NCBI GenBank assembly: GCA_019310535.1
Contig: JAFDED010000013.1
Location: 3,346-67,345 of the forward strand
Source of the DNA: Deltaproteobacteria bacterium
Lineage (GTDB): Bacteria; Desulfobacterota; JAFDED01
Direction of reading: 5' to 3'
Length of the DNA stretch: 64,000 nt
Below are positions 3,187 through 19,383 of this stretch, in pieces. Position numbers and translations under genes: made by a program. The stretch's first letter is position 1, and each line of letters begins with the position of its first letter. The notes beneath the pieces were generated by a model. It worked only from the letters and a program-made list of their open reading frames with translations, did not search any database and was not told the DNA's origin.

Positions 3187-3717
3187 CTATCGTCCGCCGA
3201 ACCGATCCAGGATTGTTCGAATAATTTGGGTGGTGGACGCGCCGGGGACAGGGTCAAAGCGGATTACACGGCCACCCTGAGCCTCGACCAGATCGCGCCC
3301 GATGATCTGATCCTCAGCCCAGTCTCCGCCTTTGACCAGAATGTGGGGACGAAGCTCTGCAATGAGCCTGTGCGGGTCCGCCTCCTGGAATATGACCACA
3401 TAGTCCACAACTTCCAGGGCCGCCAGAACCTCGGCACGTAGCGTATGGGGCACGAGGGGGCGCTCCTTGCCTTTGATGGAACGCACCGAATCGTCGCTGT
3501 TGATGCCCACCACCAGAAGGTCTCCTTGTCCGCGGGCAAAAGAGAGTGTCCGAACATGACCCACGTGGAGCAAATCAAAACAACCGTTAGTGAAGACTAT
3601 AGTTTTGCCCCGGTCTCTTTCCCGCTCAAGGATATGCCTGAGTTTTGAGCGATTCTTAATCTTGTCCCCCGCTTGTCGAGGGCCCTCGTTTCGGCGGGTA
3701 ACCATGGGCGCAAGCAT
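3187..3717 (-). CDS. hldC: D-glycero-beta-D-manno-heptose 1-phosphate adenylyltransferase (RfaE domain II-type cytidylyltransferase)
   Basis: [13 protein letters not shown] nucleotidyltransferase motif, then [20 protein letters not shown] ... LVKGGDW ... STTQII. This is collinear with the stand-alone RfaE/HldE C-terminal domain. Confidence 0.8.
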
Positions 3718-4171
3718 GACACTATCGTTCCACTTTTGTCAAGGGGCTTTTGTTCAAGGAGTTGGTAGCATTTCAAGATGTCCGGTTCCATTTACAAATA
3801 AAATATCCGGTTTTTGTATTGAGCTTTATCATACGAAGAATCCGTGATACGTGATGTAAATATCTTTTTCACTTCCGGATAATTTTATGCCGTTGCTACG
3901 CTTTGTTATGCATTAAAGTGATTTCCTGGTGATAACTCCCGGCTTCCGCCCCCATCTTTCCATCGAAAAGGTGACTGCTTGACGGCGCTGATGATGACTA
4001 TCCAGAGCAAGGAGATTAACTGAATACGGACTGATAGGGCAAATCTTTCAAAGGCTTCGATGACTTCAGGAAAAATTTTTAAGTGTAAGGCAGGATTTTC
4101 CTTGATTTTTCGTGTAATATAGGCGATAAAACAAGAACCGGGCTTAATAAGAGTACGGAAGCGAGAGCGAT

Positions 4172-4786
4172 ATGACAAAACTGTTGATTTTCGATTTCGA
4201 TGGTGTCATCGTGGATTCCCTAGCGTTTTATTTCGAAGCCTGGAGCCGCGCTATGAAGGCGTTTGGCCGGGAGGATCTGGCCGAACGAGAGGCATTTTTA
4301 TCCTTGCTGGACGGCAATTTATACGAGTCCATGAGCCGCCAGGGGATCCCCTTCCGGGCCTTCCCCGAACTCAGCAATCGAATCCAGTCAGCACTGAGGA
4401 TAAACCGCATAGTTCCTTTTCCAGGAATCCCCGAAGCCATTCAATCATTATCGCGCAATAAGTCTCTGGCCCTTGTCTCATCCAACAACTCATCCATGAT
4501 TAAAAGTCTCCTGGAACGCCACGGCATGTCGGATATTTTCGATCCCATTCTCGGCGCCGATACAGAACGGCTGAAAGGGCACAAAATCGATCTTGCCTTG
4601 GAGGCGCACAACGTGCCGGCTGTGGATAGTTTTTACATTTGCGACACGGTGGGTGACATTCGGGAAGCCCGCAGCGTGGACATTTGTGTGGCCGCCGTTA
4701 CGTGGGGATGGCACAACGCCGAGCGCCTTGCACGCGCAAAACCTGACCGAATTCTCCATTGCCCGCAGGAACTCATGGAGTTATAA
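4172..4786 (+). CDS. HAD-superfamily hydrolase (phosphoglycolate phosphatase-like)
   Basis: HAD motif I (FDFDGVIVDS), motif II (LVSSN) and motif IV (ICDTVGDI). 204 aa. Confidence 0.8.
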   Translation: MTKLLIFDFDGVIVDSLAFYFEAWSRAMKAFGREDLAEREAFLSLLDGNLYESMSRQGIPFRAFPELSNRIQSALRINRIVPFPGIPEAIQSLSRNKSLALVSSNNSSMIKSLLERHGMSDIFDPILGADTERLKGHKIDLALEAHNVPAVDSFYICDTVGDIREARSVDICVAAVTWGWHNAERLARAKPDRILHCPQELMEL

Positions 4787-5486: not shown

Positions 5487-7484
5487 TCAAGTACTGCCGT
5501 TAGCTGTGTCCTTTTGCAGGGCCAACTCAATCTCTGTCTTTGTCACCAAGGGGCCCTGGAGCCTTTGAATCGGAACACTGCCCCCAATAATCATGTCGCC
5601 GTGGCCGATAAGATATTCGGCCCCGGTCTGGTCTAAGATAATAGAGCTGTTGCTTGCGGTGGTTACTTTGAGCGCCACTTTTAGCTGCAGGTTTGCCTTG
5701 ATGATAGGTGTCACCACCCTGGCATCAGGCCTCTGGGTGGCGAGGATAAGATGTATGCCCGCCGCCCGTCCCTTTTGTCCGAGACGCTGGATGGATAACT
5801 CCAGTTTCTCCCTGGTAGTTTTGCCACTGATAAGATCGGCGTATTCATCGATCATGACCACCTGGCGGCTCAAGGTTTCGGCACGCTGATTATAGGCGCT
5901 GATATCGGGCGCTCTCATTTTTTCAAACAATCGATACCGTTTCTCCATCTCATCGACGAGTTGAGAGAGTTTTTCCATTGCGGGGTCATTGTCCATCAGC
6001 ACCGGGCCTGACAGATGCGGTAACGACGTGAGATCAGTAAAGGTGATACGTTTGGAGTCAATCAGTGTGATCCGGACGTCTTCAGGTTTTGCGTTAAGGG
6101 CCAGACCAATGGCCGCAGACCTGAGAAAAACACTTTTCCCGCTTCCTGCTGTGCCTCCCACCAGCATGCTCGTCATTGTCGGATCGCTCAGATCGGCCCA
6201 GACAATCGAGCCGTCAATTGACATGCCAATGGGAAACGCAACCTTGGAGTGGGGCCTGTTTCGCTGTCCTTTTCGCCAGACTTCTCCCAATGTCAACGGA
6301 ATCCTGACCTTCCGCGGAACATCAACGCTGACGTAGCCTGCTTGAGGCTGAATTAATGGAGCAACGTGCAACCTCAACGCCACCTGCAGGTTTTCTGCCT
6401 GATTCATTAATTTCCTGACGGTAACACCTTGATCGAGCAGGGGTTTTATCTTTAATCGAATAAATCTCGGCCCGGCTGTATACCCGGAGGGCTCAACGGG
6501 CAACCTCAGGGCTTGGAGGGCATTAACAAGAGAAGCCATGCCTTTTTCTGCTTCTTTAAACGCCTCTTTTGTTTCATGATCGGGCGTGGTTGAGATTTCC
6601 TGGATGCGGGGGCCCCACTCCCCATCGCATTGCGGATCAAAGGGACAAACAGCGCATAGTTGCAAATCAGGAGCGGGCGGCAACGATTTTTTTTGTTTTT
6701 TGGAAACAGCCTCCATGACATCGATGACCCGGCGAAAAAGGTCAGGGAGATTTTGCATGGCACAAGTGATATCTTCCGACGAATAGCGGACTTCGGGTTC
6801 TTCTTCCTCCAGGTAAAAGATCACCCCGCGCGGGGTAATGCCGGTTTTTGTTTTGATCAACCAGCAGTAAAGCACAATCTGCAAAAAATCCTCCTCCGCA
6901 TAACCCGCCTTACGCCCTTTGAATTCCATAACAACCGCCTCACCCGATGCCGCATCAAACAGCAGCGCGTCGTACTTGCCAATGACACGAAACGTCTCAC
7001 CGTCTCCCAGATCGTACACGCTCTTGATTAATTCTTCAGGGTTGTGAAATGTTTTTGCCGGCAAAGTATCGATGTCACCCCTTTGCTCCAGTAAAGCCTT
7101 GCGTAGAAATTGAGCAAGGTGCCGATTCCACAGCTCAAGAGCACGACCCAGTTGCATCACCTGGTCTGCGCTTAATTTTTTGCTCTGCCGCTTTACGACG
7201 GGTAAAAAGAAGTGTTCCTCCAGCAGAGCCAGCAGACCCATTTCCAGGTTTTCTCCGGGGCCGATTAAAAGCGCCTTGAGACGTTGACGGACGGCGGGAC
7301 TGGAGCCGGAGGCCATCATCTTATGAAAGGGAGCGGCGATTTGATCATGAAATAACGTCCCGGGCAGAACGCCCGTCCCGGCAAGTCCTATTTTCCAGGC
7401 GTTTCTGCGGCCGCGCAATTGATAGGCGAGCAATCTCGGACAGCGCTGAAGCAAATGAATCTGGGAAACATTAGCTTTGTGCAT
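5487..7484 (-). CDS. Cas4/RecB-like PD-(D/E)xK Fe-S nuclease fused to an FtsK/SpoIIIE-type DNA translocase ATPase
   Basis: Residues 1-290 carry a Cas4-type motif set: C15 (LLQRCPRLL), D172 (IGKYDALLFD), E187-x-K189 (VVMEFKG), QxxxY (LQIVLY) and CX2CX5C (CAVCPFDPQC). Residues ~330-650 are a collinear FtsK motor: the beta-domain-like segment FIRLKIKP...VSVDVPRK, Walker A GGTAGSGKS (nt 6132-6158), Walker B VVMIDEYADL and LILATQRP. No TM helices and no gamma (KOPS) domain are evident. The start overlaps the upstream gene by 14 nt. Confidence 0.85.
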   Translation of the reverse strand: MHKANVSQIHLLQRCPRLLAYQLRGRRNAWKIGLAGTGVLPGTLFHDQIAAPFHKMMASGSSPAVRQRLKALLIGPGENLEMGLLALLEEHFFLPVVKRQSKKLSADQVMQLGRALELWNRHLAQFLRKALLEQRGDIDTLPAKTFHNPEELIKSVYDLGDGETFRVIGKYDALLFDAASGEAVVMEFKGRKAGYAEEDFLQIVLYCWLIKTKTGITPRGVIFYLEEEEPEVRYSSEDITCAMQNLPDLFRRVIDVMEAVSKKQKKSLPPAPDLQLCAVCPFDPQCDGEWGPRIQEISTTPDHETKEAFKEAEKGMASLVNALQALRLPVEPSGYTAGPRFIRLKIKPLLDQGVTVRKLMNQAENLQVALRLHVAPLIQPQAGYVSVDVPRKVRIPLTLGEVWRKGQRNRPHSKVAFPIGMSIDGSIVWADLSDPTMTSMLVGGTAGSGKSVFLRSAAIGLALNAKPEDVRITLIDSKRITFTDLTSLPHLSGPVLMDNDPAMEKLSQLVDEMEKRYRLFEKMRAPDISAYNQRAETLSRQVVMIDEYADLISGKTTREKLELSIQRLGQKGRAAGIHLILATQRPDARVVTPIIKANLQLKVALKVTTASNSSIILDQTGAEYLIGHGDMIIGGSVPIQRLQGPLVTKTEIELALQKDTANGST

Positions 7485-9588
7485 GAACCCAACTCTTCTT
7501 TAACATGATTAAGACCCCGTCTTTGGACGGTATGACCTCAAAACGATCCCTAAAATTGCCAATGACCGTAAGCATCCTTTCCAGGTCTATGGAAATTCCG
7601 GATTGAATCAACGATTCGACAAGCTTTTGAGAAGTTACCATCATCATGGGCACCGGGCGAAGAATCTCCACCGCCTTTTGGACAACACGGTTATCATCCA
7701 CTGAAGGGCGACTGTGCCGGAAGCTTCTCTGTCCTGTTCCGGAAGGCGTTGCCATGGCCTCATCAAGAATTTGAAATCCTGGATACCGGCCCCCGTGAAG
7801 GCCATCCCGAAGAAAGCCGGCCAGCTCATCGATAGAAACGGGCCTTATACGATTATTGGCGTCGATGATCGTTACATCGTATGAATTAACAGCGTATTTG
7901 AGTAATTCAAGGGCATACCATGTTGCGACTTGCTCATGGTCAAGAAAGATAACATGACCTCCACGTTTTTTGAAATCATGAAGTATTTTGTTTGTAGCCT
8001 GCCACCTGGGAGGGGACGGGAAGGGGCAGCGTTTATCCCTGATATAATAAGCTCTTCCGGAAGCATGGCTTTCCAGAAAGACTATGCCTCTTTTAAGAGC
8101 GGCACTCACGGACGAATGGTGTCGTTCAATATCTATAATAAAGACAGCGGGAACGGGCGGAGAACCTGAGAACTTGATCTTACATTCGAAATCAACATAT
8201 TTTTCCTTGCCCCCAGGACGTCTTAACGATTCGATTTCATATCCGCTTCTGAATGGATTGTTGGTGAGATAAAGCTCCAGAGCGCCTCGCAATCTGGCGC
8301 GATCGGGTTGATAGCGGTCAAGATCGGTCAGGATTATCTCATATTTACTTTCAAACTCATCTTTTATTTTTTCAATGGGGGAGACTGCAGCCGGGCTCTC
8401 ATCAAGTATTTGACTCAATCGTCCGTTGGCCAGCGTGATAACCATCCTTGGACTGTTAAAACTGGTTTTAAAAGTCTTAATTAAATCGTCTTTATCAAAT
8501 GGGAATAAATCGTCAGCCTGATTTTCTCCAAAGACGAATTCCAGGCGGCTCCGAATGATCTCCAGAACTTGCTCCTTAGTACATCCTTTAAGCTGAAACA
8601 TGTTTCCTTCGAGCCTTTGTATTACGTGCACGTTTAATTTCTTTTTAAACGTCTCTTCCCATTGTTGTCCTCTGAAGAAAGCAAGGGGGAGCATTGCTTT
8701 TGCTTCATTCACCAAAAATTCAACCATTTTTCCTAATGCTTTTACCTGCTCGTCCGTTACTAAATTCTCCAATTGATCGAAACAGACAATGAGTGGTTGG
8801 CCGTAACGTGCCAGCAAAAGGCCCAGGGAGATCAGTATATCGTGGGATCGTTGCTCCAGGGCAGCCGCGGAATCATGCAGGCGATCACGCACCTGGAGCA
8901 ATGCGGTGTCCTCTTCATCAAGAACAACACCTTTCAGCCAGCTCACAGCGGCAAACCTTTTCTCCCTGATGCGATATTGAAATAAAACCTTCAGAAACTC
9001 TTTGTCGATCTCGGGGAATTGTTTCATTATCAGTTCGGTGGATTTTGTTTGCATAAGATCAAATGCGTCAGGATGAATTCTTGCCCTGAAAATATATGTT
9101 GGATATTCTCGAAGTTTACCGAGGATGTTTGTAAATTTTTCATCCCTGGTAGAATTATATATTTTTTCGATTAACTCTCTGAAGATTTTACCTAACATTA
9201 CATCAAGCTGAGTGGCGTCAAAAGCCTTTTCTATGGGGCGGCAGAGATTAACCATCACTTCGCGCAGGAGATAGCGATAGGTCTGTTCAGGGTCTTCAAT
9301 AGGCTGAATATACGCGAAAGAAAAGGGAGATTTACCGTGCTTGCCGTAATCCAGTATTCTGCCGATGAGGTGTGTCTTGCCACTGCCCGCTTCTCCGAGA
9401 ACCAGTCCAGCAAAGCGGTCAGCAGGATCTCGTGTTTTTTGACCAATAAGCCGGCAGAGTCCCTCGAAAGCATGTTTATTGATTGAGGTCACATCCAGAT
9501 ATTTTCCCGCCCATGGGTCGCCAGCACTGTTAGAAGCAAAGGGATTTTTCTCCTTTAAGATATCAAGCTTTTCATGAGCTTTCATCAT
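7471..9588 (-). CDS. large P-loop NTPase (AAA/ORC-like) of unknown function
   Basis: 705-aa ORF. Walker A GEAGSGKT (nt 9373-9396) and a Walker B-like LIVCFDQLE about 195 aa downstream. The ~270-aa C-terminal region is unassigned. ATGA overlap with the upstream gene. Visibly AT-rich. Confidence 0.8.
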   Translation of the reverse strand: MMKAHEKLDILKEKNPFASNSAGDPWAGKYLDVTSINKHAFEGLCRLIGQKTRDPADRFAGLVLGEAGSGKTHLIGRILDYGKHGKSPFSFAYIQPIEDPEQTYRYLLREVMVNLCRPIEKAFDATQLDVMLGKIFRELIEKIYNSTRDEKFTNILGKLREYPTYIFRARIHPDAFDLMQTKSTELIMKQFPEIDKEFLKVLFQYRIREKRFAAVSWLKGVVLDEEDTALLQVRDRLHDSAAALEQRSHDILISLGLLLARYGQPLIVCFDQLENLVTDEQVKALGKMVEFLVNEAKAMLPLAFFRGQQWEETFKKKLNVHVIQRLEGNMFQLKGCTKEQVLEIIRSRLEFVFGENQADDLFPFDKDDLIKTFKTSFNSPRMVITLANGRLSQILDESPAAVSPIEKIKDEFESKYEIILTDLDRYQPDRARLRGALELYLTNNPFRSGYEIESLRRPGGKEKYVDFECKIKFSGSPPVPAVFIIDIERHHSSVSAALKRGIVFLESHASGRAYYIRDKRCPFPSPPRWQATNKILHDFKKRGGHVIFLDHEQVATWYALELLKYAVNSYDVTIIDANNRIRPVSIDELAGFLRDGLHGGRYPGFQILDEAMATPSGTGQRSFRHSRPSVDDNRVVQKAVEILRPVPMMMVTSQKLVESLIQSGISIDLERMLTVIGNFRDRFEVIPSKDGVLIMLKKSWVHAQS

Positions 9589-10301
9589 TCATGCCCCCAC
9601 CAGGTCATAGTAAGGTAAAGAATGCCGTTTTCGCCCATAAAAGAATCTTGAATTTCTTTTTCAGTCATTATAGAAGGATCTCCAGTATGGAGTTCAATGG
9701 TATAATCCGCCATCAAATCGGTCAAAACACCATCAAATCGATCCCTGGGCCATTGTAAAAATTCCCGTATTCGATGAATGCGAACAAAACTCCGCCCCTT
9801 GCCAACGTTATCATAGGCTTTTTTGAATGCAGCGCGGTCTGCGGCAGGCCCAACTTTCGGTGCTGTCGGTAGCGGGACTTTATCGGTTATTCTCAGTGAT
9901 GGGGTATGATATTCATTGAAGGTGCAGATAACGGAACCTGATTTCAACAGCTCATTAAGGAGAGAAATGTAAGTCTTTTTAATCATGGGAATATTCTTTC
10001 CCGCCTGTTTTGAGGACAAACCGGGATTTTGTTTGATTTTATTAAAAATGATTTCTTCCAGGGGCATTTTGAAGCCGATATAAGTGGACCTTCCCTTATA
10101 ATCTTGTAATCTACTACCGAAATGAGGCTTAAGTCTTTTAAGCACGGCTGTCGAAGACGATTTTCTCGTAAGACCGCAATGCTTCAATGAATCAGCGGGG
10201 AGCCCCTGTCTAACTTGTGCAACCGTGAGGTAGTCCTGTTTTGTCTTTTTTAAAAGTTTTGAAATTTGCTCTTCAATGTTCGTCAGATCGTCTTTTCCCA
10301 T
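9585..10301 (-). CDS. hypothetical protein, first gene of the three-gene operon (possible winged-helix/DNA-binding; unassigned)
   Basis: 238-aa lysine-rich ORF with a strong AAGGAG Shine-Dalgarno 8 nt upstream of the ATG. Its stop overlaps the next start (ATGA). I recognise no motif. Confidence 0.65.
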   Translation of the reverse strand: MGKDDLTNIEEQISKLLKKTKQDYLTVAQVRQGLPADSLKHCGLTRKSSSTAVLKRLKPHFGSRLQDYKGRSTYIGFKMPLEEIIFNKIKQNPGLSSKQAGKNIPMIKKTYISLLNELLKSGSVICTFNEYHTPSLRITDKVPLPTAPKVGPAADRAAFKKAYDNVGKGRSFVRIHRIREFLQWPRDRFDGVLTDLMADYTIELHTGDPSIMTEKEIQDSFMGENGILYLTMTWWGHE

Positions 10302-10407
10302 GAATGATTCTCCTTGAACCCCTGATTAATGGAAAACGGCTTTCCAGGGCGCTTTAATGCGTGTAGCCTCATTCCGAAGGGCTTGTGCACGTTGCATCCC
10401 GGCACTT

Positions 10408-11388
10408 CTAACCGCGAAAAGCATCAGGATTCACCAGATTGGGCGGCCGTTTTCCTTCCAGCGCCGCCAAAAGGTTTTCCGCAGCCATGAGAGCCATCTT
10501 TTCTCTGGTCTCTCGAGTGGCGCTTCCGATGTGGGGGGTCAAGACCACGTTTGGCAGCTCCCCAAGCCCCGGTGTCAGGTGAGGTTCATTCTCATATACA
10601 TCCAGGGCCGCCCCCGCAATGGCACCATCCCGAAGGGCGCTGAGCAAAGCCGCTTCATCCACCACCATGCCCCTGGATGCATTTATGAGAAAAGAGGTCG
10701 GCTTCATCATTGACAATTGGGGCGAGCCGATAAGGTGCCGCGTATCGGGTGAACTCGGCACATGAAGGGTGACAAAGTCAGCCTCTCGCAAGAGTGTTTC
10801 GAAATTTACGTACGCGGCCTTCAATTCCCGCTCCAAAGAAGGTTCGACGCGTTTCCTGTTGTAATAGATGATCCTCATGCCGAATCCCTGGGCTCGTCGT
10901 GCCACAGATGACCCGATGCGCCCCATGCCGACGATCCCCAGGGTCTTGCCATACACGTCGGTTCCCAGGAAACAATTAAAAGGCCACTTATCCCGGTCCT
11001 TTTCACGGATAAATCGATCCGATTCCACTACACGGCGCGCAACAGCCATGATGAGTGCCCAGGTGAGATCGGCAGTTGTCTCCGTAAGGACCCCCGGCGT
11101 ATTGCATACCAGTATGCCTCTGGCCGTGGCTGCGGGCACGTCGATGTTGTCATAGCCCACAGCATAATTGGCCACAACCCTCAGGCGTGGCGCCGTGTCC
11201 ATGACCTGCCGGTCGATGCGGTCGGAGTGACAGGTTAATATTCCCTCAGCCTTCCACACGTGGCCCAACAAACTCTCATGGGGAAGGCATTCTTCCACGG
11301 GGTCGGCAACCAGATCGCAGCGGGCGCGTATCATCTCTATGGCACTAACCGGTACACCGCACGTTACCAGCGCTTTCCATCTTTGCAT
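10408..11388 (-). CDS. D-isomer-specific 2-hydroxyacid dehydrogenase (glyoxylate/hydroxypyruvate reductase-like)
   Basis: NAD-binding GIVGMGRIGSSVARR, plus the catalytic-region motifs SRG...VDE and LTPHIGSAT. The ORF opens at 11439, but ATG 11388 follows AAGGAGGAC and gives a typical ~326 aa. Confidence 0.9.
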   Translation of the reverse strand: MQRWKALVTCGVPVSAIEMIRARCDLVADPVEECLPHESLLGHVWKAEGILTCHSDRIDRQVMDTAPRLRVVANYAVGYDNIDVPAATARGILVCNTPGVLTETTADLTWALIMAVARRVVESDRFIREKDRDKWPFNCFLGTDVYGKTLGIVGMGRIGSSVARRAQGFGMRIIYYNRKRVEPSLERELKAAYVNFETLLREADFVTLHVPSSPDTRHLIGSPQLSMMKPTSFLINASRGMVVDEAALLSALRDGAIAGAALDVYENEPHLTPGLGELPNVVLTPHIGSATRETREKMALMAAENLLAALEGKRPPNLVNPDAFRG

Positions 11389-11604
11389 GAGCCAGTCCTC
11401 CTTGTTCTTATACAATTCCCTGAAATCTTCGAAACCCATCTCTTTACGGTGATGATGATAAGGTATTGAAGATGTATGTCAAGAAGAATTCTTTTGTCAT
11501 TTTACACCATATGTTATTATATCAAATAGTTGGGATAAGAATCCATCCGCCGATTTTTCATTGCAAAATGCAAATTTACCAATTATCATTGTTGAGTTTA
11601 ATAA

Positions 11605-13671
<2,067 letters not shown>

Positions 13672-15606: not shown

Positions 15607-16740
15607 TTAACTGGTCCCCTGCTGCATACGTTCACCCGAGACCTGGAAGCGCCTCATGAATTTTCTGTCAATGTAATCCTTCAGGTAAAAGGAAAGCCTT
15701 CCGTTCCACACCCAGTTTTTTTTCCAGAATATTCCCCTCCCGTCTCCCAGGCTGAAAATAAGAAGGTAGGGGCGGTCGGGATCGAAGGGTTCCATATTTC
15801 CACCTTCCAGCGCGGCCATCAGGTTGTGATAGAGGACAGGGTTTTGTCGAACGGCGTAAACTCCCACTTTATTCAGCGGTTTGCTTTCAAGGCTGATACA
15901 GTCGCCGCCGCCGAAGATCTCGGGATAGGCGACGCTCTGAAGATGGGTGTTCACCAGTAGTCCTCTATCGTCGCCCGTGGGCAGCCCCGAATCGCGAAAA
16001 AGGGATGACGGCTTTACTCCTAATGCCAGGATCAGCAGGTCGTAATAAAGCTTCCGTCCGTCGGTCATGACGGCTTGGCCGCTCTCAAAGCGGCGCAGAT
16101 GGGCACCCTCCGCCACCTCAATTCCTCGGGCAGAGAGGGATTCCATTGCCAGACGCCGGGTTTTTTCGGGAAAACGACCAAGCAATCTCCGGCCGGCCAG
16201 GAGCTTGATCTGAGCCTTCCCCCCGAGATCATGAACCAGCCGCCAGATGTTGCCGGAAATTTCAAGCCCTGCGGCACCTCCGCCAACCACCACCAGCCTT
16301 GGAGTTGCCGTCTGTATGAGGTCCATGACAGCCCGTCTGGCCTTATGAAGGTTTTCTATTGGCTTGACCGTAATCATCTTTTCATCCCGTCCCGTCACGG
16401 ATTCCAGCGGGATCTCGCTGCCGGTGTTAAATGAAACGATGTCATAGCCAATCTCATCATTTGAGTCGAGAAAAAGGATGCGTCGATCGGGATCCACCCG
16501 CACAACATTCCCTTCCACAAATGACACTCCCCGGTCTTCCGCCATTTTTTTTATATGAAACCGGATTTCTTCAGGACGGTAAATACCAGAGAGCATCCCC
16601 GGTCCCATGCCTGAATAATAATGATACGGCGCTGAGCTGATCAATGTCACCCGGTGGCCCCGTTCGACAAAATCACCGGCTTTCTTCAGGACGGTAAGAT
16701 GGGCATGCCCACCGCCAACAATGATGAGATGTTTCTTCAT
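15607..16740 (-). CDS. FAD/NAD(P)-dependent pyridine nucleotide-disulfide oxidoreductase family protein
   Basis: N-terminal Rossmann motif LIIVGGGHAH, a second dinucleotide motif VVVGGGAAGLE and a GGGDC motif near the C-terminus. 377 aa. Lies 53 nt upstream of the rhodanese gene on the same strand. Confidence 0.85.
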   Translation of the reverse strand: MKKHLIIVGGGHAHLTVLKKAGDFVERGHRVTLISSAPYHYYSGMGPGMLSGIYRPEEIRFHIKKMAEDRGVSFVEGNVVRVDPDRRILFLDSNDEIGYDIVSFNTGSEIPLESVTGRDEKMITVKPIENLHKARRAVMDLIQTATPRLVVVGGGAAGLEISGNIWRLVHDLGGKAQIKLLAGRRLLGRFPEKTRRLAMESLSARGIEVAEGAHLRRFESGQAVMTDGRKLYYDLLILALGVKPSSLFRDSGLPTGDDRGLLVNTHLQSVAYPEIFGGGDCISLESKPLNKVGVYAVRQNPVLYHNLMAALEGGNMEPFDPDRPYLLIFSLGDGRGIFWKKNWVWNGRLSFYLKDYIDRKFMRRFQVSGERMQQGTS

Positions 16741-17124
16741 AACAATTCCAGCATTATTTCTAACAAATTGTCATTCAGTGGCTGCACCCGCGGAGCATGA
16801 AAATCATTTTATCTACATATTAACATGCTTTCTATCAGCCCCCAATATGTAGTGCAAAAGATTTATTTTATTTTATACGTAATATCCGGAAAATGGTCAA
16901 GCAAGCGGGAGTTTTCCCATTTTTTCCGCGATTAAACTCACAAACTCGTGCGCCCTGACATGGGCGGAGAGCTTGTATTTCGCACAATAAATGCTTTTTT
17001 TATTATGTAAATAGCTTTATCCTGTTAAAATCAAACAACTTTTGTAAAATTAATGTTAATTTGTGAATAACTTCTACCAGGTGCGCAACATCCATTGCCT
17101 TTGAAAAGCCTTTGAAAAATTTTC

Positions 17125-17154
17125 TTGCAAAGAATTTCGATAGTAGTTTAGAAT
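17125..17154 (+). promoter_or_regulatory. candidate sigma-70 promoter
   Basis: TTGCAA - 18 nt - TAGAAT, about 40 nt upstream of the FHA-CpaF start. Preceded by a tandem CCTTTGAAAA x2. Confidence 0.35.
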
Positions 17155-17193
17155 GGGAAAAAACGGGGGCAAAAAAATAAAGGGGGCGGTGCC

Positions 17194-19383
17194 ATGTTAA
17201 GATTTATATTGAAGGAAAATGATGGGAAGGAACGAGTAATTATTATTGAGAAGGATGTTGTACGGATCGGCAAATCCGAGGCAAATGACCTGATACTTTC
17301 ACAGCCCGGTGTCTCAAGGCGCCATGCTATTGTGAGACGCACCGGAGGCAAAGTCGTTATAGAGGATCTGGTCAGCACCAATGGCACTTTCGTCAACGGC
17401 AAACGCATCTCCGCTCCCCAGGAATTAAACATCGGCGATCTTGTCTTTATATCCGGCTATACTCTTCAACTGGATATGTTCTCCTCCGTTGAAGAACCCA
17501 CTCAGTCCATCGAACGGGAAGAAGCGGAAAAGCCCGCGCATCGGGCGCCGGGAGAGGAGGAGAAACCCACACTGGAGGCGACGACGGCCGATAGCGGCAT
17601 TGGTGGAGAAGATATGGAGGAGCCTTCGAGGGAGCCTCTGGACGAAGGGGTTAAGACCTTCGGCATTCCAAGACAGGAAATGGAAGAATGGGCGAAACCC
17701 GGGGAGGAGGAAGATGGTTTAAAACCGCAGGAAGAGCCTATTCTTAAGGATACATTCGAGAAACCCCTCCAGGAGGAAGCCGAGACAGCATCCCTGAAAG
17801 AAGGGGCTCCAGAGCGCGAGCTTATCGAGGAGGAAGAAATTCCATTCATCCCCCTGCGTGAGGAAGACATGTTAGATGCCCAGGTTCCAGAGCCGCAGCA
17901 AATGCAATGGGAGGATACCCTTGATACGCTGGAAAGTCCCCTGAAGAGAGAAGAAGTCAGGGAAGAGGAAGAGAAACCCGATCTTGTTGAAGAGCAAGCA
18001 GCCACCGTTTCCCTGCCTGAAGAAAGTGTGAAGCAGGAGGCTCTCGAGGAGATGGTTTCCACCGAGTTCGAAGCACTCAGCCCCGCCGTTTCCCCACCGA
18101 AAGAAGATGCCCCGTTGGAAGAAGATATGGGAAGGGTGGCAAGCCGTATTTATCGGCACCTTCTGGATCAACCCGAGTTATATTGGCGTTTTCTGGAGCC
18201 CGGCCAGGATGTCAGCAACAGACAGATAGCCTTCCTGCATGCGATCAGGAGCCTGATGGACGATATGGGTCTTGAGATTCCTCCCCATATCCCCCGGGAA
18301 GAACTGAGTCAGCGCATGATGGAAGAGGCAGTGCTGCCGGGAATCGTGGAGCAATTGATGGCCGATCCCGATAATCGCTCCATTATGATAAACGGAAAAG
18401 AGCGGGTATTTATTGAACGGGGCGGAAAGATGGAGCGAACAGAGTTTCGCTTCAGTTGCGACGATGCGGTGATGGCGGTTGCCTCCTGGATGCTGATGCG
18501 GGTTGGGAAACACATAGATTCCTCCAATCCCATTGTGGACGCCCGGTTGGAAAATGGGGCGGAAATCCATGTTATAATCCCTCCAATGGCCTTTTCCGGC
18601 CCCTGCCTGACCATTCGAAAGCCGGGAGGTCTGCTGTTTACTATGGCCGATCTGGTCGAAAAGGAATCTTTGTCCAAGGATATGGCTCAATTATTAAAAA
18701 TTAGCGTTGAGAACGGTATGAACATCCTGATTACCGGGACTCAAGGGTCCGGTAAAACCACTCTCCTCATGGCGCTGGCCTCTCTCATCCCGGAAGAAGA
18801 GCGCGTTATCACCATTGAGGATTGGCCCGAACTCAGTCTTCCACAGGAGAACGTTGTGAGCCTTCTCACCTGTCCCCCGGAGGTCAGTGGTCAGGGCGGG
18901 GTCACAGTCATGGATCTGGTGCGCAGCTCGTTGAAGATGCGGCCGGATAGGGTGGTGCTGGGGGGGTGCTCGAGCGAAGAAGTGATTGAGATTTTTCAGG
19001 CCGGCCGCGGCGGTATCCGGGGATTGCTGGCGGCCGTCCATGTAAACTCACCCCGCCAAGCCTTAGTTCAGTTGAACCTGTCCGCGGGCCTCGGCACGAA
19101 CCTTTCCGTCATGCTCCCCTGGATCGCCTCTATGGTGGACCTCATCGTCCAATGCGTTCAGATGTCTGATGGAAGGCGAAAGGTGACCAGAATCTGCGAG
19201 GTTGCTGACTCTGGTGACGAGCCCTTTACCTTGCGCGATATCTTTCGGTTTGAGTCCAGCGGATTCGATAAGGAGACCAGCTTTCTGGGAAGTTTTGTCC
19301 CCCAGAATGTGGTTCCCCGTTTTATTCAAGATTTGGAGATGCGCGGAGTGCCCGTGGAACGAGAAATGTTTCAGAAGCTTTAA
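17194..19383 (+). CDS. FHA domain / acidic low-complexity linker / CpaF(TadA)-type secretion ATPase fusion
   Basis: N-terminal FHA domain (VVRIGKSEANDLIL...VSRRHA...STNGTFVNG). A Glu-rich linker of ~210 aa (nt ~17482-18123). A C-terminal domain collinear with CpaF/VirB11-class ATPases (Walker A GTQGSGKTT; TIEDWPEL; RPDRVVLGG). Confidence 0.9.
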   Translation: MLRFILKENDGKERVIIIEKDVVRIGKSEANDLILSQPGVSRRHAIVRRTGGKVVIEDLVSTNGTFVNGKRISAPQELNIGDLVFISGYTLQLDMFSSVEEPTQSIEREEAEKPAHRAPGEEEKPTLEATTADSGIGGEDMEEPSREPLDEGVKTFGIPRQEMEEWAKPGEEEDGLKPQEEPILKDTFEKPLQEEAETASLKEGAPERELIEEEEIPFIPLREEDMLDAQVPEPQQMQWEDTLDTLESPLKREEVREEEEKPDLVEEQAATVSLPEESVKQEALEEMVSTEFEALSPAVSPPKEDAPLEEDMGRVASRIYRHLLDQPELYWRFLEPGQDVSNRQIAFLHAIRSLMDDMGLEIPPHIPREELSQRMMEEAVLPGIVEQLMADPDNRSIMINGKERVFIERGGKMERTEFRFSCDDAVMAVASWMLMRVGKHIDSSNPIVDARLENGAEIHVIIPPMAFSGPCLTIRKPGGLLFTMADLVEKESLSKDMAQLLKISVENGMNILITGTQGSGKTTLLMALASLIPEEERVITIEDWPELSLPQENVVSLLTCPPEVSGQGGVTVMDLVRSSLKMRPDRVVLGGCSSEEVIEIFQAGRGGIRGLLAAVHVNSPRQALVQLNLSAGLGTNLSVMLPWIASMVDLIVQCVQMSDGRRKVTRICEVADSGDEPFTLRDIFRFESSGFDKETSFLGSFVPQNVVPRFIQDLEMRGVPVEREMFQKL

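Follow-up and report, generated by a model that had tools for sequence, protein, structure and literature searches.

A three-gene cassette of a deltaproteobacterium that probably belongs to the predicted Orc/Cdc6-coupled HerA/FtsK capture systems

Introduction

In tracing the origin of the FtsK domain of DndH, Rakesh, Aravind & Krishnan (Nucleic Acids Research, NAR 2024, PMC10853773) reached a group of "mobile gene neighbourhoods" that they described as Orc/Cdc6-coupled "HerA/FtsK capture systems" and predicted by comparative genomics only. According to their account of these neighbourhoods, the parts are an Orc/CDC6 ATPase, an active restriction endonuclease (REase), for which two nuclease families are distinguished, and a HerA/FtsK domain, and the ATPase carries an inactive REase-fold domain between its AAA+ core and a C-terminal winged helix-turn-helix (wHTH) domain. 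One set has an FtsK-alpha domain captured from cellular FtsK; a subset includes a fast-evolving protein that carries 2-4 wHTH domains, and others fuse a 3'-5' exonuclease to the FtsK component. The Orc/Cdc6 and helix-turn-helix parts were proposed to localise the apparatus, and the motor to pump invader DNA to the nuclease. A 2026 paper of the same group repeats the description (PMC12839542). The only FtsK effectors to appear in a 2020 paper on the conflict systems of multicellular bacteria are inactive ones. Here we describe a three-gene cassette at positions 5487-10301 of a 64-kb window (the whole stretch of DNA that was analysed) from contig JAFDED010000013.1 of Deltaproteobacteria bacterium GCA_019310535.1. 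Matched against the published description, this cassette is probably an instance of the Orc/Cdc6-coupled HerA/FtsK capture conflict systems.

Results

Domain anatomy of the three proteins

The cassette consists of three minus-strand open reading frames (ORFs), here called gene 1 (10301->9585, 238 amino acids, aa), gene 2 (9588->7471, 705 aa) and gene 3 (7484->5487, 665 aa). Gene 3 combines a nuclease with a motor:

5487-7484, minus strand: gene 3, a Cas4/RecB-type PD-(D/E)XK iron-sulfur (Fe-S) nuclease with a soluble FtsK alpha-beta translocase (Pfam, PDB match)
6624-7472, minus strand: nuclease domain, aa 5-287 (PDDEXK_1/Cas_Cas4; PADLOC Cas4)
6315-6611, minus strand: FtsK alpha domain, aa 292-390 (PF17854, 30.2 bits against a cut-off of 22.9)
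5505-6284, minus strand: FtsK beta (RecA-like) motor, aa 401-660 (FtsK_SpoIIIE at aa 401-586)

An initial annotation, made from the nucleotide sequence before any database search, had read gene 3 as a Cas4-nuclease-FtsK fusion, and the Pfam matches, all of them above cut-off, confirm this (PDDEXK_1 1.4e-11, Cas_Cas4 1.4e-5, FtsK_alpha 5.5e-7, FtsK_SpoIIIE 1.3e-34). More than 100 full-length homologues were found. In 32 diverse homologues, conservation of at least 90% was observed for the nuclease residues D172, E187, K189, Q202 and Y206, for the Cas4-type cysteines C15, C277, C280 and C286, and for the motor motifs (Walker A G444-K450-S451, Walker B D546/E547 and R585). To judge from its residues, the nuclease is apparently active and of the Fe-S type. 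The motor structure of E. coli FtsK, 2ius, is matched at 8.7e-49. No match to FtsK_gamma was found in Pfam at E<=0.1, and there is no hydrophobic segment (maximum 19-residue hydropathy 1.12), so that gene 3 would be a soluble motor devoid of a reader of host polarity.

Gene 2 is an ATPase built from several modules:

7471-9588, minus strand: gene 2, Orc/Cdc6-clade AAA+ ATPase, 705 aa (model, fold search)
8404-9477, minus strand: AAA+ module with lid, aa 38-395 (model, fold search, motif conservation)
7840-8259, minus strand: inserted alpha/beta domain, aa 444-583, about 135 aa (secondary structure of the model)
7474-7695, minus strand: C-terminal winged helix, aa 632-705 (model; helix-helix-helix-strand-strand at aa 632-700, predicted local distance difference test, pLDDT, >90)

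The model as a whole (pLDDT 88.8; predicted template-modelling score, pTM, 0.81) consists of the AAA+ module, helical linkers, the insert and the C-terminal winged helix. By sequence, gene 2 had no match in the PDB, and Pfam gave weak, sub-threshold P-loop matches (AAA_16/KAP/NACHT) at aa 61-294. The top matches of the fold search are Cdc6 1fnn (E 4.5e-5), Orc4 and Orc1/Cdc6 2qby, with TnsC, BrxC and NLRs ranked behind them. The protein had been annotated as a sensor-type P-loop NTPase; the P-loop is right, and the fold search places the protein specifically in the Orc/Cdc6 clade. Walker A residues G65/G68/G70/K71/T72 and Walker B-like D271/E274 are invariant across 43 homologues. Among the residues proposed earlier for mutation, K71 of gene 2 is therefore invariant, and D172, E187, K189 and K450 of gene 3 are invariant or at least 90% conserved.

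The insert of gene 2 has the order alpha-beta-beta-beta-alpha-beta and lies between the AAA+ module and the C-terminal winged helix. Its acidic residues, spaced D466...D486-x-E488, are kept in 41/43 (D466), 43/43 (D486) and 35/43 (E488) homologues, and there is no lysine at the canonical position. The C-terminal winged helix, which alone had no independent fold match, is present in 24/24 loci with a nuclease-bearing partner as against 4/24 with a caspase partner or none.

Gene 1 encodes a basic protein made of winged helices:

9585-10301, minus strand: gene 1, basic protein with three tandem winged-helix units (AlphaFold model, fold matches)
10071-10277, minus strand: winged-helix unit 1, aa 9-77, variable (model; 5/69 positions at least 90% conserved)
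9888-10061, minus strand: winged-helix unit 2, aa 81-138, variable (model; 7/58 positions at least 90% conserved)
9588-9848, minus strand: winged-helix unit 3, aa 152-238, conserved (32/87 positions at least 90% conserved)

This protein had been put down as unknown, and it had no family match in Pfam, PADLOC, NCBIfam or PHROGs. Its AlphaFold model (pLDDT 88) shows three helix-helix-helix-strand-strand units, and its best PDB fold matches are all tandem winged-helix proteins, which makes it a triple winged-helix protein. Gene 1 is the most divergent (lowest identity) of the three proteins in 14/14 comparable loci, and most of its invariant residues fall in unit 3. We predict that gene 1 is a DNA-recognition or specificity subunit, and we infer that its unit 3 is a docking domain for gene 2. 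An hhalign comparison of gene 1 with the genes in first place at the cyanobacterial and Magnetomorum loci showed no relationship. A paralogue of 407 aa (P0240, at the locus pair L090/L093 described below) has an N-terminal extension. A precomputed R.Pab1 nuclease tag for P0240 was not reproduced, as hmmscan gave DEK_C only, and the tag was not used.

Comparison with the capture systems

The likeness to the described capture systems extends to the set of parts. The cassette has an Orc/Cdc6 ATPase with an insert before a C-terminal wHTH, a PD-(D/E)XK nuclease with an apparently intact active site, an FtsK motor carrying FtsK-alpha, and a separate, fast-evolving multi-wHTH protein (three units); cyanobacterial relatives carry a 3'-5' exonuclease fusion of the kind that PMC10853773 describes. 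There are also differences. The insert of the ATPase is called inactive in that description, but D466/D486/E488 are strongly conserved here, and its inactivity is thus not evident in gene 2. The passages on capture systems in PMC10853773 do not name the Cas4/RecB Fe-S type of the nuclease found here, and they mention neither the caspase and two-gene forms described below nor an association with multicellular lineages.

The initial annotation had proposed an uncharacterised DNA-targeting conflict system and could assign the trio to no named one. The DNA-targeting logic is supported by the anatomy of the cassette. The claim of an uncharacterised system falls, since the architecture is already predicted in the capture-system account of PMC10853773, cited again in PMC12839542. 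To that extent a published name exists; in PADLOC, NCBIfam, RefSeq and PHROGs there is none for the cassette, only single-domain matches. The published account of capture systems (PMC10853773) does not appear to mention several features seen here: genes 1 and 2 as a constant core, forms of it with a caspase or with two genes alone, the conservation of acidic residues in the insert called "inactive", the co-variation of the gene 2 wHTH with the nuclease, and a conserved, docking-like third winged helix in gene 1.

Comparison with other known systems

The motor of gene 3 is close to the C terminus of SspH (PADLOC SspH, 5.7e-65), and a nuclease, a captured FtsK motor and a multi-wHTH partner are common to the cassette and DndFGH/SspFGH as PMC10853773 outlines them. 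However, the SspH match covers only aa 353-633 of gene 3, at positions 1445-1737 of a 1766-position model. The cassette lacks a DndF/SspF or DndG/SspG homologue, a SWI2/SNF2-derived domain and phosphorothioate modification genes, and genes 1-2 have no Dnd/Ssp match in PADLOC; we therefore rejected membership in DndFGH/SspFGH.

In HerA-NurA and Sir2-HerA/DUF4297-HerA systems, a nuclease or another effector works with a ring translocase from the FtsK/HerA superfamily. The cassette follows the same design principle of translocase and nuclease, but its motor belongs to the FtsK clade and has FtsK-alpha (PADLOC HerA matched at only 4e-7 over a fragment), its nuclease is Cas4-like and in the same chain, and its partners are an Orc/Cdc6 ATPase and a wHTH protein. 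On these grounds it was assigned to neither HerA-NurA nor HerA-Sir2.

The alpha and beta domains of gene 3 match cellular FtsK/SpoIIIE (2ius), and the ATPase motifs are intact. Unlike cellular FtsK, gene 3 has no N-terminal membrane segments, linker or KOPS-reading (KOPS/XerD) gamma domain, and has a nuclease at its N terminus; NCBIfam FtsK scores 174 bits against a cut-off of 1566, and a cellular FtsK was rejected. With Cas4 it shares D...ExK, QxxxY and one N-terminal plus three C-terminal cysteines. A CRISPR Cas4 was nevertheless rejected, as the nuclease is fused to a motor and scores 43.5 bits with TIGR00372 against a cut-off of 65; no tandem-repeat array was found in the window and no cas gene within about 5 kb on either side.

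Two further candidates were discarded. For MADS (methylation-associated defence system), whose gene set mad1-mad8 includes a methyltransferase, there was a partial mad8 match on the motor (4e-24), a marginal one on gene 2, and no methyltransferase within ~5 kb. For defence ATPases of the STAND/NLR type (Avs, bNACHT), gene 2 scores 16.5 bits with NACHT against a cut-off of 26.7, Avs2 gave E = 0.005 over 40 residues, and NLR structures rank below Orc/Cdc6 in the fold search with gene 2.

Variants of the third gene

A genome scan with an alignment of gene 3 was discarded because it followed FtsK-motor patterns, with 79/80 loci being ordinary cellular FtsK. Gene 2 was then used as the anchor in a collection of species-representative genomes, which gave 79 loci, and profiles representing genes 1 and 2, the nuclease and the motor were run against six-frame ORFs around these. 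The pair of genes 1 and 2 is kept across at least seven bacterial phyla and one archaeon, and gene 1 lies directly upstream of gene 2 in essentially all loci whose gene 2 exceeds an identity of about 28%. At the third position the following were found:

18 loci: nuclease-FtsK fusion
11 loci, plus 4 truncated: nuclease without an FtsK-family motor
3 loci, plus L008: FtsK fused to the C terminus of gene 2, no nuclease
9 loci: caspase with PG_binding_1, directly downstream on the same strand
about 25 loci: nothing recognisable

What stays constant is thus the pair of genes 1-2, whereas gene 3 can be exchanged for other third genes. The co-occurrence of the trio, which the initial annotation had named as a check, stands in that the three genes are conserved and co-inherited in many phyla; it does not stand as an obligate association. 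The order of the genes is kept in Desulfobacterota, Planctomycetota, Cyanobacteria, Synergistota, Acidobacteriota, SAR324, Magnetococcales and one archaeon, which counts in favour of a capture system. Examples of three-gene loci are (protein lengths in the order gene 1/gene 2/gene 3):

Desulfococcaceae HSG8 (L001): 252/708/661 aa
Ca. Electrothrix (L004): 248/708/657 aa
a Planctomycete (L006): 222/677/670 aa
Dolichospermum (L007): 284/702/849 aa, with an extra 3'-5' exonuclease
Ca. Magnetomorum (L002): 499/665/683 aa, with a different first gene
plasmid of Pseudanabaena sp. PCC 7367 (L169): 266/680/688 aa

The Pseudanabaena copy comes from a cultured host and lies on a 329-kb conjugative plasmid (pPSE7367.01, NC_019690.1, 190629-195588), where it adjoins a divergent SWIM zinc-finger gene and a DEAD/DEAH-box helicase gene. 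The RefSeq names of this trio are generic (hypothetical protein, P-loop NTPase fold protein, DNA translocase FtsK).

Identity to the window proteins rises from gene 1 through gene 2 to gene 3 in all 14 loci that have all three (14/14), for example 30/37/48% in Electrothrix and 26/29/43% in a Methanomicrobiales archaeon. Such a gradient, with gene 1 diverging most, is as expected for a specificity subunit in an arms race. In several homologues (P0059, P0061, L008, L091, L126 and L128), gene 2 and the FtsK motor are naturally fused, which argues for physical cooperation of the gene 2 ATPase with the motor. At L008 (10001-13027), L091, L126 and L128, gene 2, FtsK-alpha and the motor form one protein of ~1000 aa, and no Cas4-like nuclease is encoded near these four fusions. 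Should such fusions be able to cut DNA, their only candidate nuclease would be the REase-like insert in gene 2. L008 and L091 share a downstream ORF of 271 aa that is 90% identical between them and has no family match.

The caspase form was found at L092, L095, L106, L109 (the Desulfonema magnum chromosome), L119, L120, L121, L122 and L131. The ORF (Peptidase_C14 with a C-terminal PG_binding_1, an assignment confirmed by Pfam) has ~350-375 aa and begins 4-216 nt past gene 2, and the gene 2 homologues at these nine loci are without the C-terminal winged helix. That the third gene can be swapped for a caspase, as is typical of conflict systems, supports reading the cassette as a conflict system. 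The same observation raises the alternative of abortive infection, in which genes 1-2 would be a sensor that unleashes the downstream effector: the motor-nuclease would shred all DNA, that of the host included, and in the sister systems the caspase would cleave cellular targets. Genes 1-2 occurring in some loci with no third gene and in others with a caspase and PG_binding_1 are in line with this, and so are the absence of a methylase or other self-marker, the kinship of Orc/Cdc6-clade ATPases to STAND/NLR switches (NLRs are among the fold matches of gene 2), and the apparent frequency of the family in lineages that are filamentous or multicellular, in which altruistic death is presumed to be of benefit. 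However, a processive DNA pump appears too elaborate for mere self-killing, and a triple winged-helix protein points to recognition of DNA and not to sensing of protein. We consider abortive infection unlikely as the main role, and keep it in view because of the caspase sister systems and the lack of a self-marking enzyme; it overlaps with the capture prediction and differs from it in the target only, self or invader.

Some loci depart from the common arrangement. In Desulfobacterales HSG2 (L090/L093, JAUCGI010000039.1), three gene 2 paralogues form a tandem cluster within about 13 kb, two with their own gene 1 and one with a nuclease-FtsK gene. In the metagenome-assembled genome of a Methanomicrobiales archaeon (L151, JAAYCY010000031.1), gene 1 is followed by a gene 2 split over 5953-6264 and 6234-7742, and the nuclease-FtsK gene lies about 1.9 kb further downstream, at 9677-11701. 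The copy may be in decay or wrongly assembled; it speaks for transfer between domains. At L148 (7994-10069; L148 and L154 come from Desulfomonilaceae and Syntrophales), the same nuclease family is joined to a different P-loop motor that matches TrwB_AAD_bind/HerA DUF87 instead of FtsK_SpoIIIE, which fits repeated capture of different motors of the HerA/FtsK superfamily. The third gene of L154 (8033-10114) is similar in size to that of L148 and also has no FtsK match.

Locus and composition

The ORFs, their coordinates, their overlaps and the ribosome-binding site are exactly as first annotated:

10310-10315, minus strand: ribosome-binding site AAGGAG, 8 nt upstream of the gene 1 ATG (read from the sequence)
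9585-9588, minus strand: ATGA stop/start overlap of genes 1 and 2 (translational coupling)
7471-7484, minus strand: 14-nt overlap of genes 2 and 3 (gene 3 ATG at 7484; gene 2 TAA ends at 7471)

At the junction of genes 1 and 2, the sequence CAT GAA TGA overlaps ATG ATG. The three genes are translationally coupled. Their flanks are ordinary genes. One flank holds a RadA/Sms-like ATPase, GHL13, a cytidylyltransferase, HAD and cupin; 2-hydroxyacid dehydrogenase, LigA and PIG-L lie in the other. HAD, cupin, the dehydrogenase and ligA had already been noted in the initial annotation. The 64-kb window contains no tRNA, Rfam RNA or tandem-repeat array; there are no meaningful repeats flanking the cassette, and scans for promoters and terminators gave match counts at chance level.

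Genes 1, 2 and 3 have G+C contents of 42.0%, 44.9% and 51.9%, respectively, compared with 52.7-59.5% in flanking genes and 51.9% in the window. The segment of genes 1-2 is in the lowest 0.2% of windows of the same size, and gene 3 is not anomalous. The 35-40% estimated earlier for genes 1-2 was too low: on the measured values the anomaly is real yet milder, and it excludes gene 3. Genes 1-2 are compositionally foreign within the window, in agreement with the horizontal acquisition suggested at the outset. G+C at third codon positions (GC3) is 56.9% in gene 3 as against 41-45% in genes 1-2. This contrast inside one operon hints that the motor-nuclease differs from the sensor pair in origin or residence time, which would agree with the exchange of modules at other loci. 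Further G+C dips occur outside the cassette at 16500-17500 (0.41-0.44), coinciding with an intergenic stretch that precedes a 729-aa ORF at 17194, and at 3500-4500 (about 0.47).

Distribution and neighbourhood

The family is rare: among 1.84 billion representative proteins, the gene 2 profile matched only 222 clusters at E<=1e-30, a number that rises to 1,028 at E<=1e-10. The hosts are mostly Desulfobacterota, with further members in Synergistota, Planctomycetota, Acidobacteriota, Cyanobacteria, SAR324, Magnetococcales, Entotheonella and one archaeon; many are filamentous or multicellular (Desulfonema, Electrothrix, Magnetomorum, Entotheonella, Nostocales). Searches of 50,697 phage and 72,556 plasmid records gave no tblastn match for gene 2, and for the nuclease domain no phage and one plasmid. 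A scan of 145 nearest-neighbour ORFs from 46 loci with PADLOC and Pfam showed the caspase plus PG_binding_1 gene as the sole recurrent neighbour family. Families of integrases, transposases, phage, conjugation and methyltransferases are not among the 25 most frequent Pfam families of these neighbours. ParA-like genes account for 3 of the 145 ORFs and are scored by PADLOC as mad3/MzaA; at L007 a ParA/MinD-like ATPase gene (CbiA/ParA/AAA_31; 12665-13549) lies directly downstream of the cyanobacterial trio. The cassette is self-contained and horizontally mobile, in neither a defence-island nor a recognisable mobile-element context.

That context bears on two other explanations. In the first, the cassette would be a cryptic module for replication, partition or transfer of a mobile element, in which gene 2 would serve as an Orc/Cdc6-like initiator and the FtsK motor as a TraB-like pump for DNA transfer or packaging; processing would fall to the nuclease and regulation to the winged-helix protein. 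The phrase "mobile gene neighbourhoods" in the capture-system account of PMC10853773 would suit this, as would the low G+C and the lack of synteny between hosts, which indicate horizontal movement, the copy on the conjugative Pseudanabaena plasmid, and the PHROG matches of the gene 3 motor to FtsK-like proteins and terminases together with a weak NCBIfam match to TraB. We nevertheless regard it as very unlikely. No integrase, transposase, relaxase, tRNA target or flanking repeats were found in the window; integrase, transposase and conjugation families are missing from the top 25 of the neighbours; gene 2 is unmatched in the phage and plasmid records; and caspase variants would make no sense for DNA transfer.

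In the second, the cassette would be a housekeeping machine for DNA-end processing or chromosome clearing, an analogue of HerA-NurA or AddAB in large, polyploid or filamentous bacteria. Its place among housekeeping genes, near ligA in the window and beside housekeeping genes elsewhere too, is what one would expect of such a machine; a ring translocase with a nuclease is the HerA-NurA design, and the motor is evidently derived from cellular FtsK (FtsK_alpha). Against it stand a patchy distribution and great rarity; synteny with repair genes is not conserved, the composition of genes 1-2 is foreign and gene 1 diverges fast, the third genes are interchangeable, a caspase included, and paralogous copies stand in tandem on one contig (L090/L093). 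We hold this to be the least likely of the explanations considered. Neighbourhood, rarity, composition and effector swapping together disfavour both the mobile-element and the housekeeping explanation, and the patchy, rare distribution with low-GC genes 1-2 supports a conflict system.

Discussion

A defence function of the cassette is plausible. In the mechanism that we propose for a capture system, the variable winged helices of gene 1 would recognise a DNA feature of the invader, and the conserved third unit would dock on gene 2. Gene 2 may act as an ATP-dependent switch or loader on DNA, and its C-terminal winged helix would serve to recruit gene 3 or to license it. Gene 3 would assemble into a translocase ring, draw in double-stranded DNA and pass it on to the nuclease domains that it carries; working like a single-chain HerA-NurA, it would destroy phage, plasmid or conjugative DNA.

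Several observations weigh against assigning the cassette to the capture systems with such a role. To our knowledge, the literature holds no experimental study of any member of the class. The insert of gene 2 is taken as REase-like by the topology of the model only, because a PDB profile search, Pfam at E<=1 and hhalign against the gene 3 nuclease gave no match to nucleases. PADLOC gave no match that would link gene 1 to DndG, SspB or FokI, and its top 50 fold matches are other tandem-wHTH proteins. The co-variation of the gene 2 winged helix with a nuclease partner (Fisher p = 1.3e-9) counts in favour of the assignment but is uncorrected for phylogeny. There is no self/non-self marker such as a methylase at the cassette. 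Enrichment next to known defence genes, proposed at the outset as a check, gave no signal: no known defence family recurs in PADLOC among the 145 neighbouring ORFs, and the usual support of a defence island is missing because the neighbours are housekeeping genes. Even so, the part-by-part match to the published description leads us to favour a capture system.

A broader reading is possible, and we put it forward tentatively. The pair of genes 1 and 2 could be a general immune switch on the Orc/Cdc6 fold that drives interchangeable effectors, namely the FtsK-Cas4 motor-nuclease, a nuclease without an FtsK motor, or a caspase with a peptidoglycan-binding domain, with the insert serving as nuclease in the two-gene and gene 2::FtsK forms.

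The design of the class is mechanistically unusual. If the capture prediction is true, it would be a defence mechanism without tested precedent, in which a segregation pump is taken off the membrane, stripped of its polarity reader and joined to a Cas4-type nuclease under an Orc/Cdc6-type loader. The analysis supplies targets for its study: catalytic residues, the predicted docking domain of gene 1 and the winged helix of gene 2 whose presence follows that of a nuclease partner. Among cultured organisms, Pseudanabaena sp. PCC 7367, Desulfonema magnum and Nostocales have the system. If genes 1-2 are a general immune switch, they would represent an NLR-like class of sensors on a replication-initiator fold, broader than the published concept of capture systems and concentrated in filamentous or multicellular bacteria. 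The swapping of effectors, motor-nuclease or caspase, bears on how sensors and effectors recombine in multicellular bacteria.

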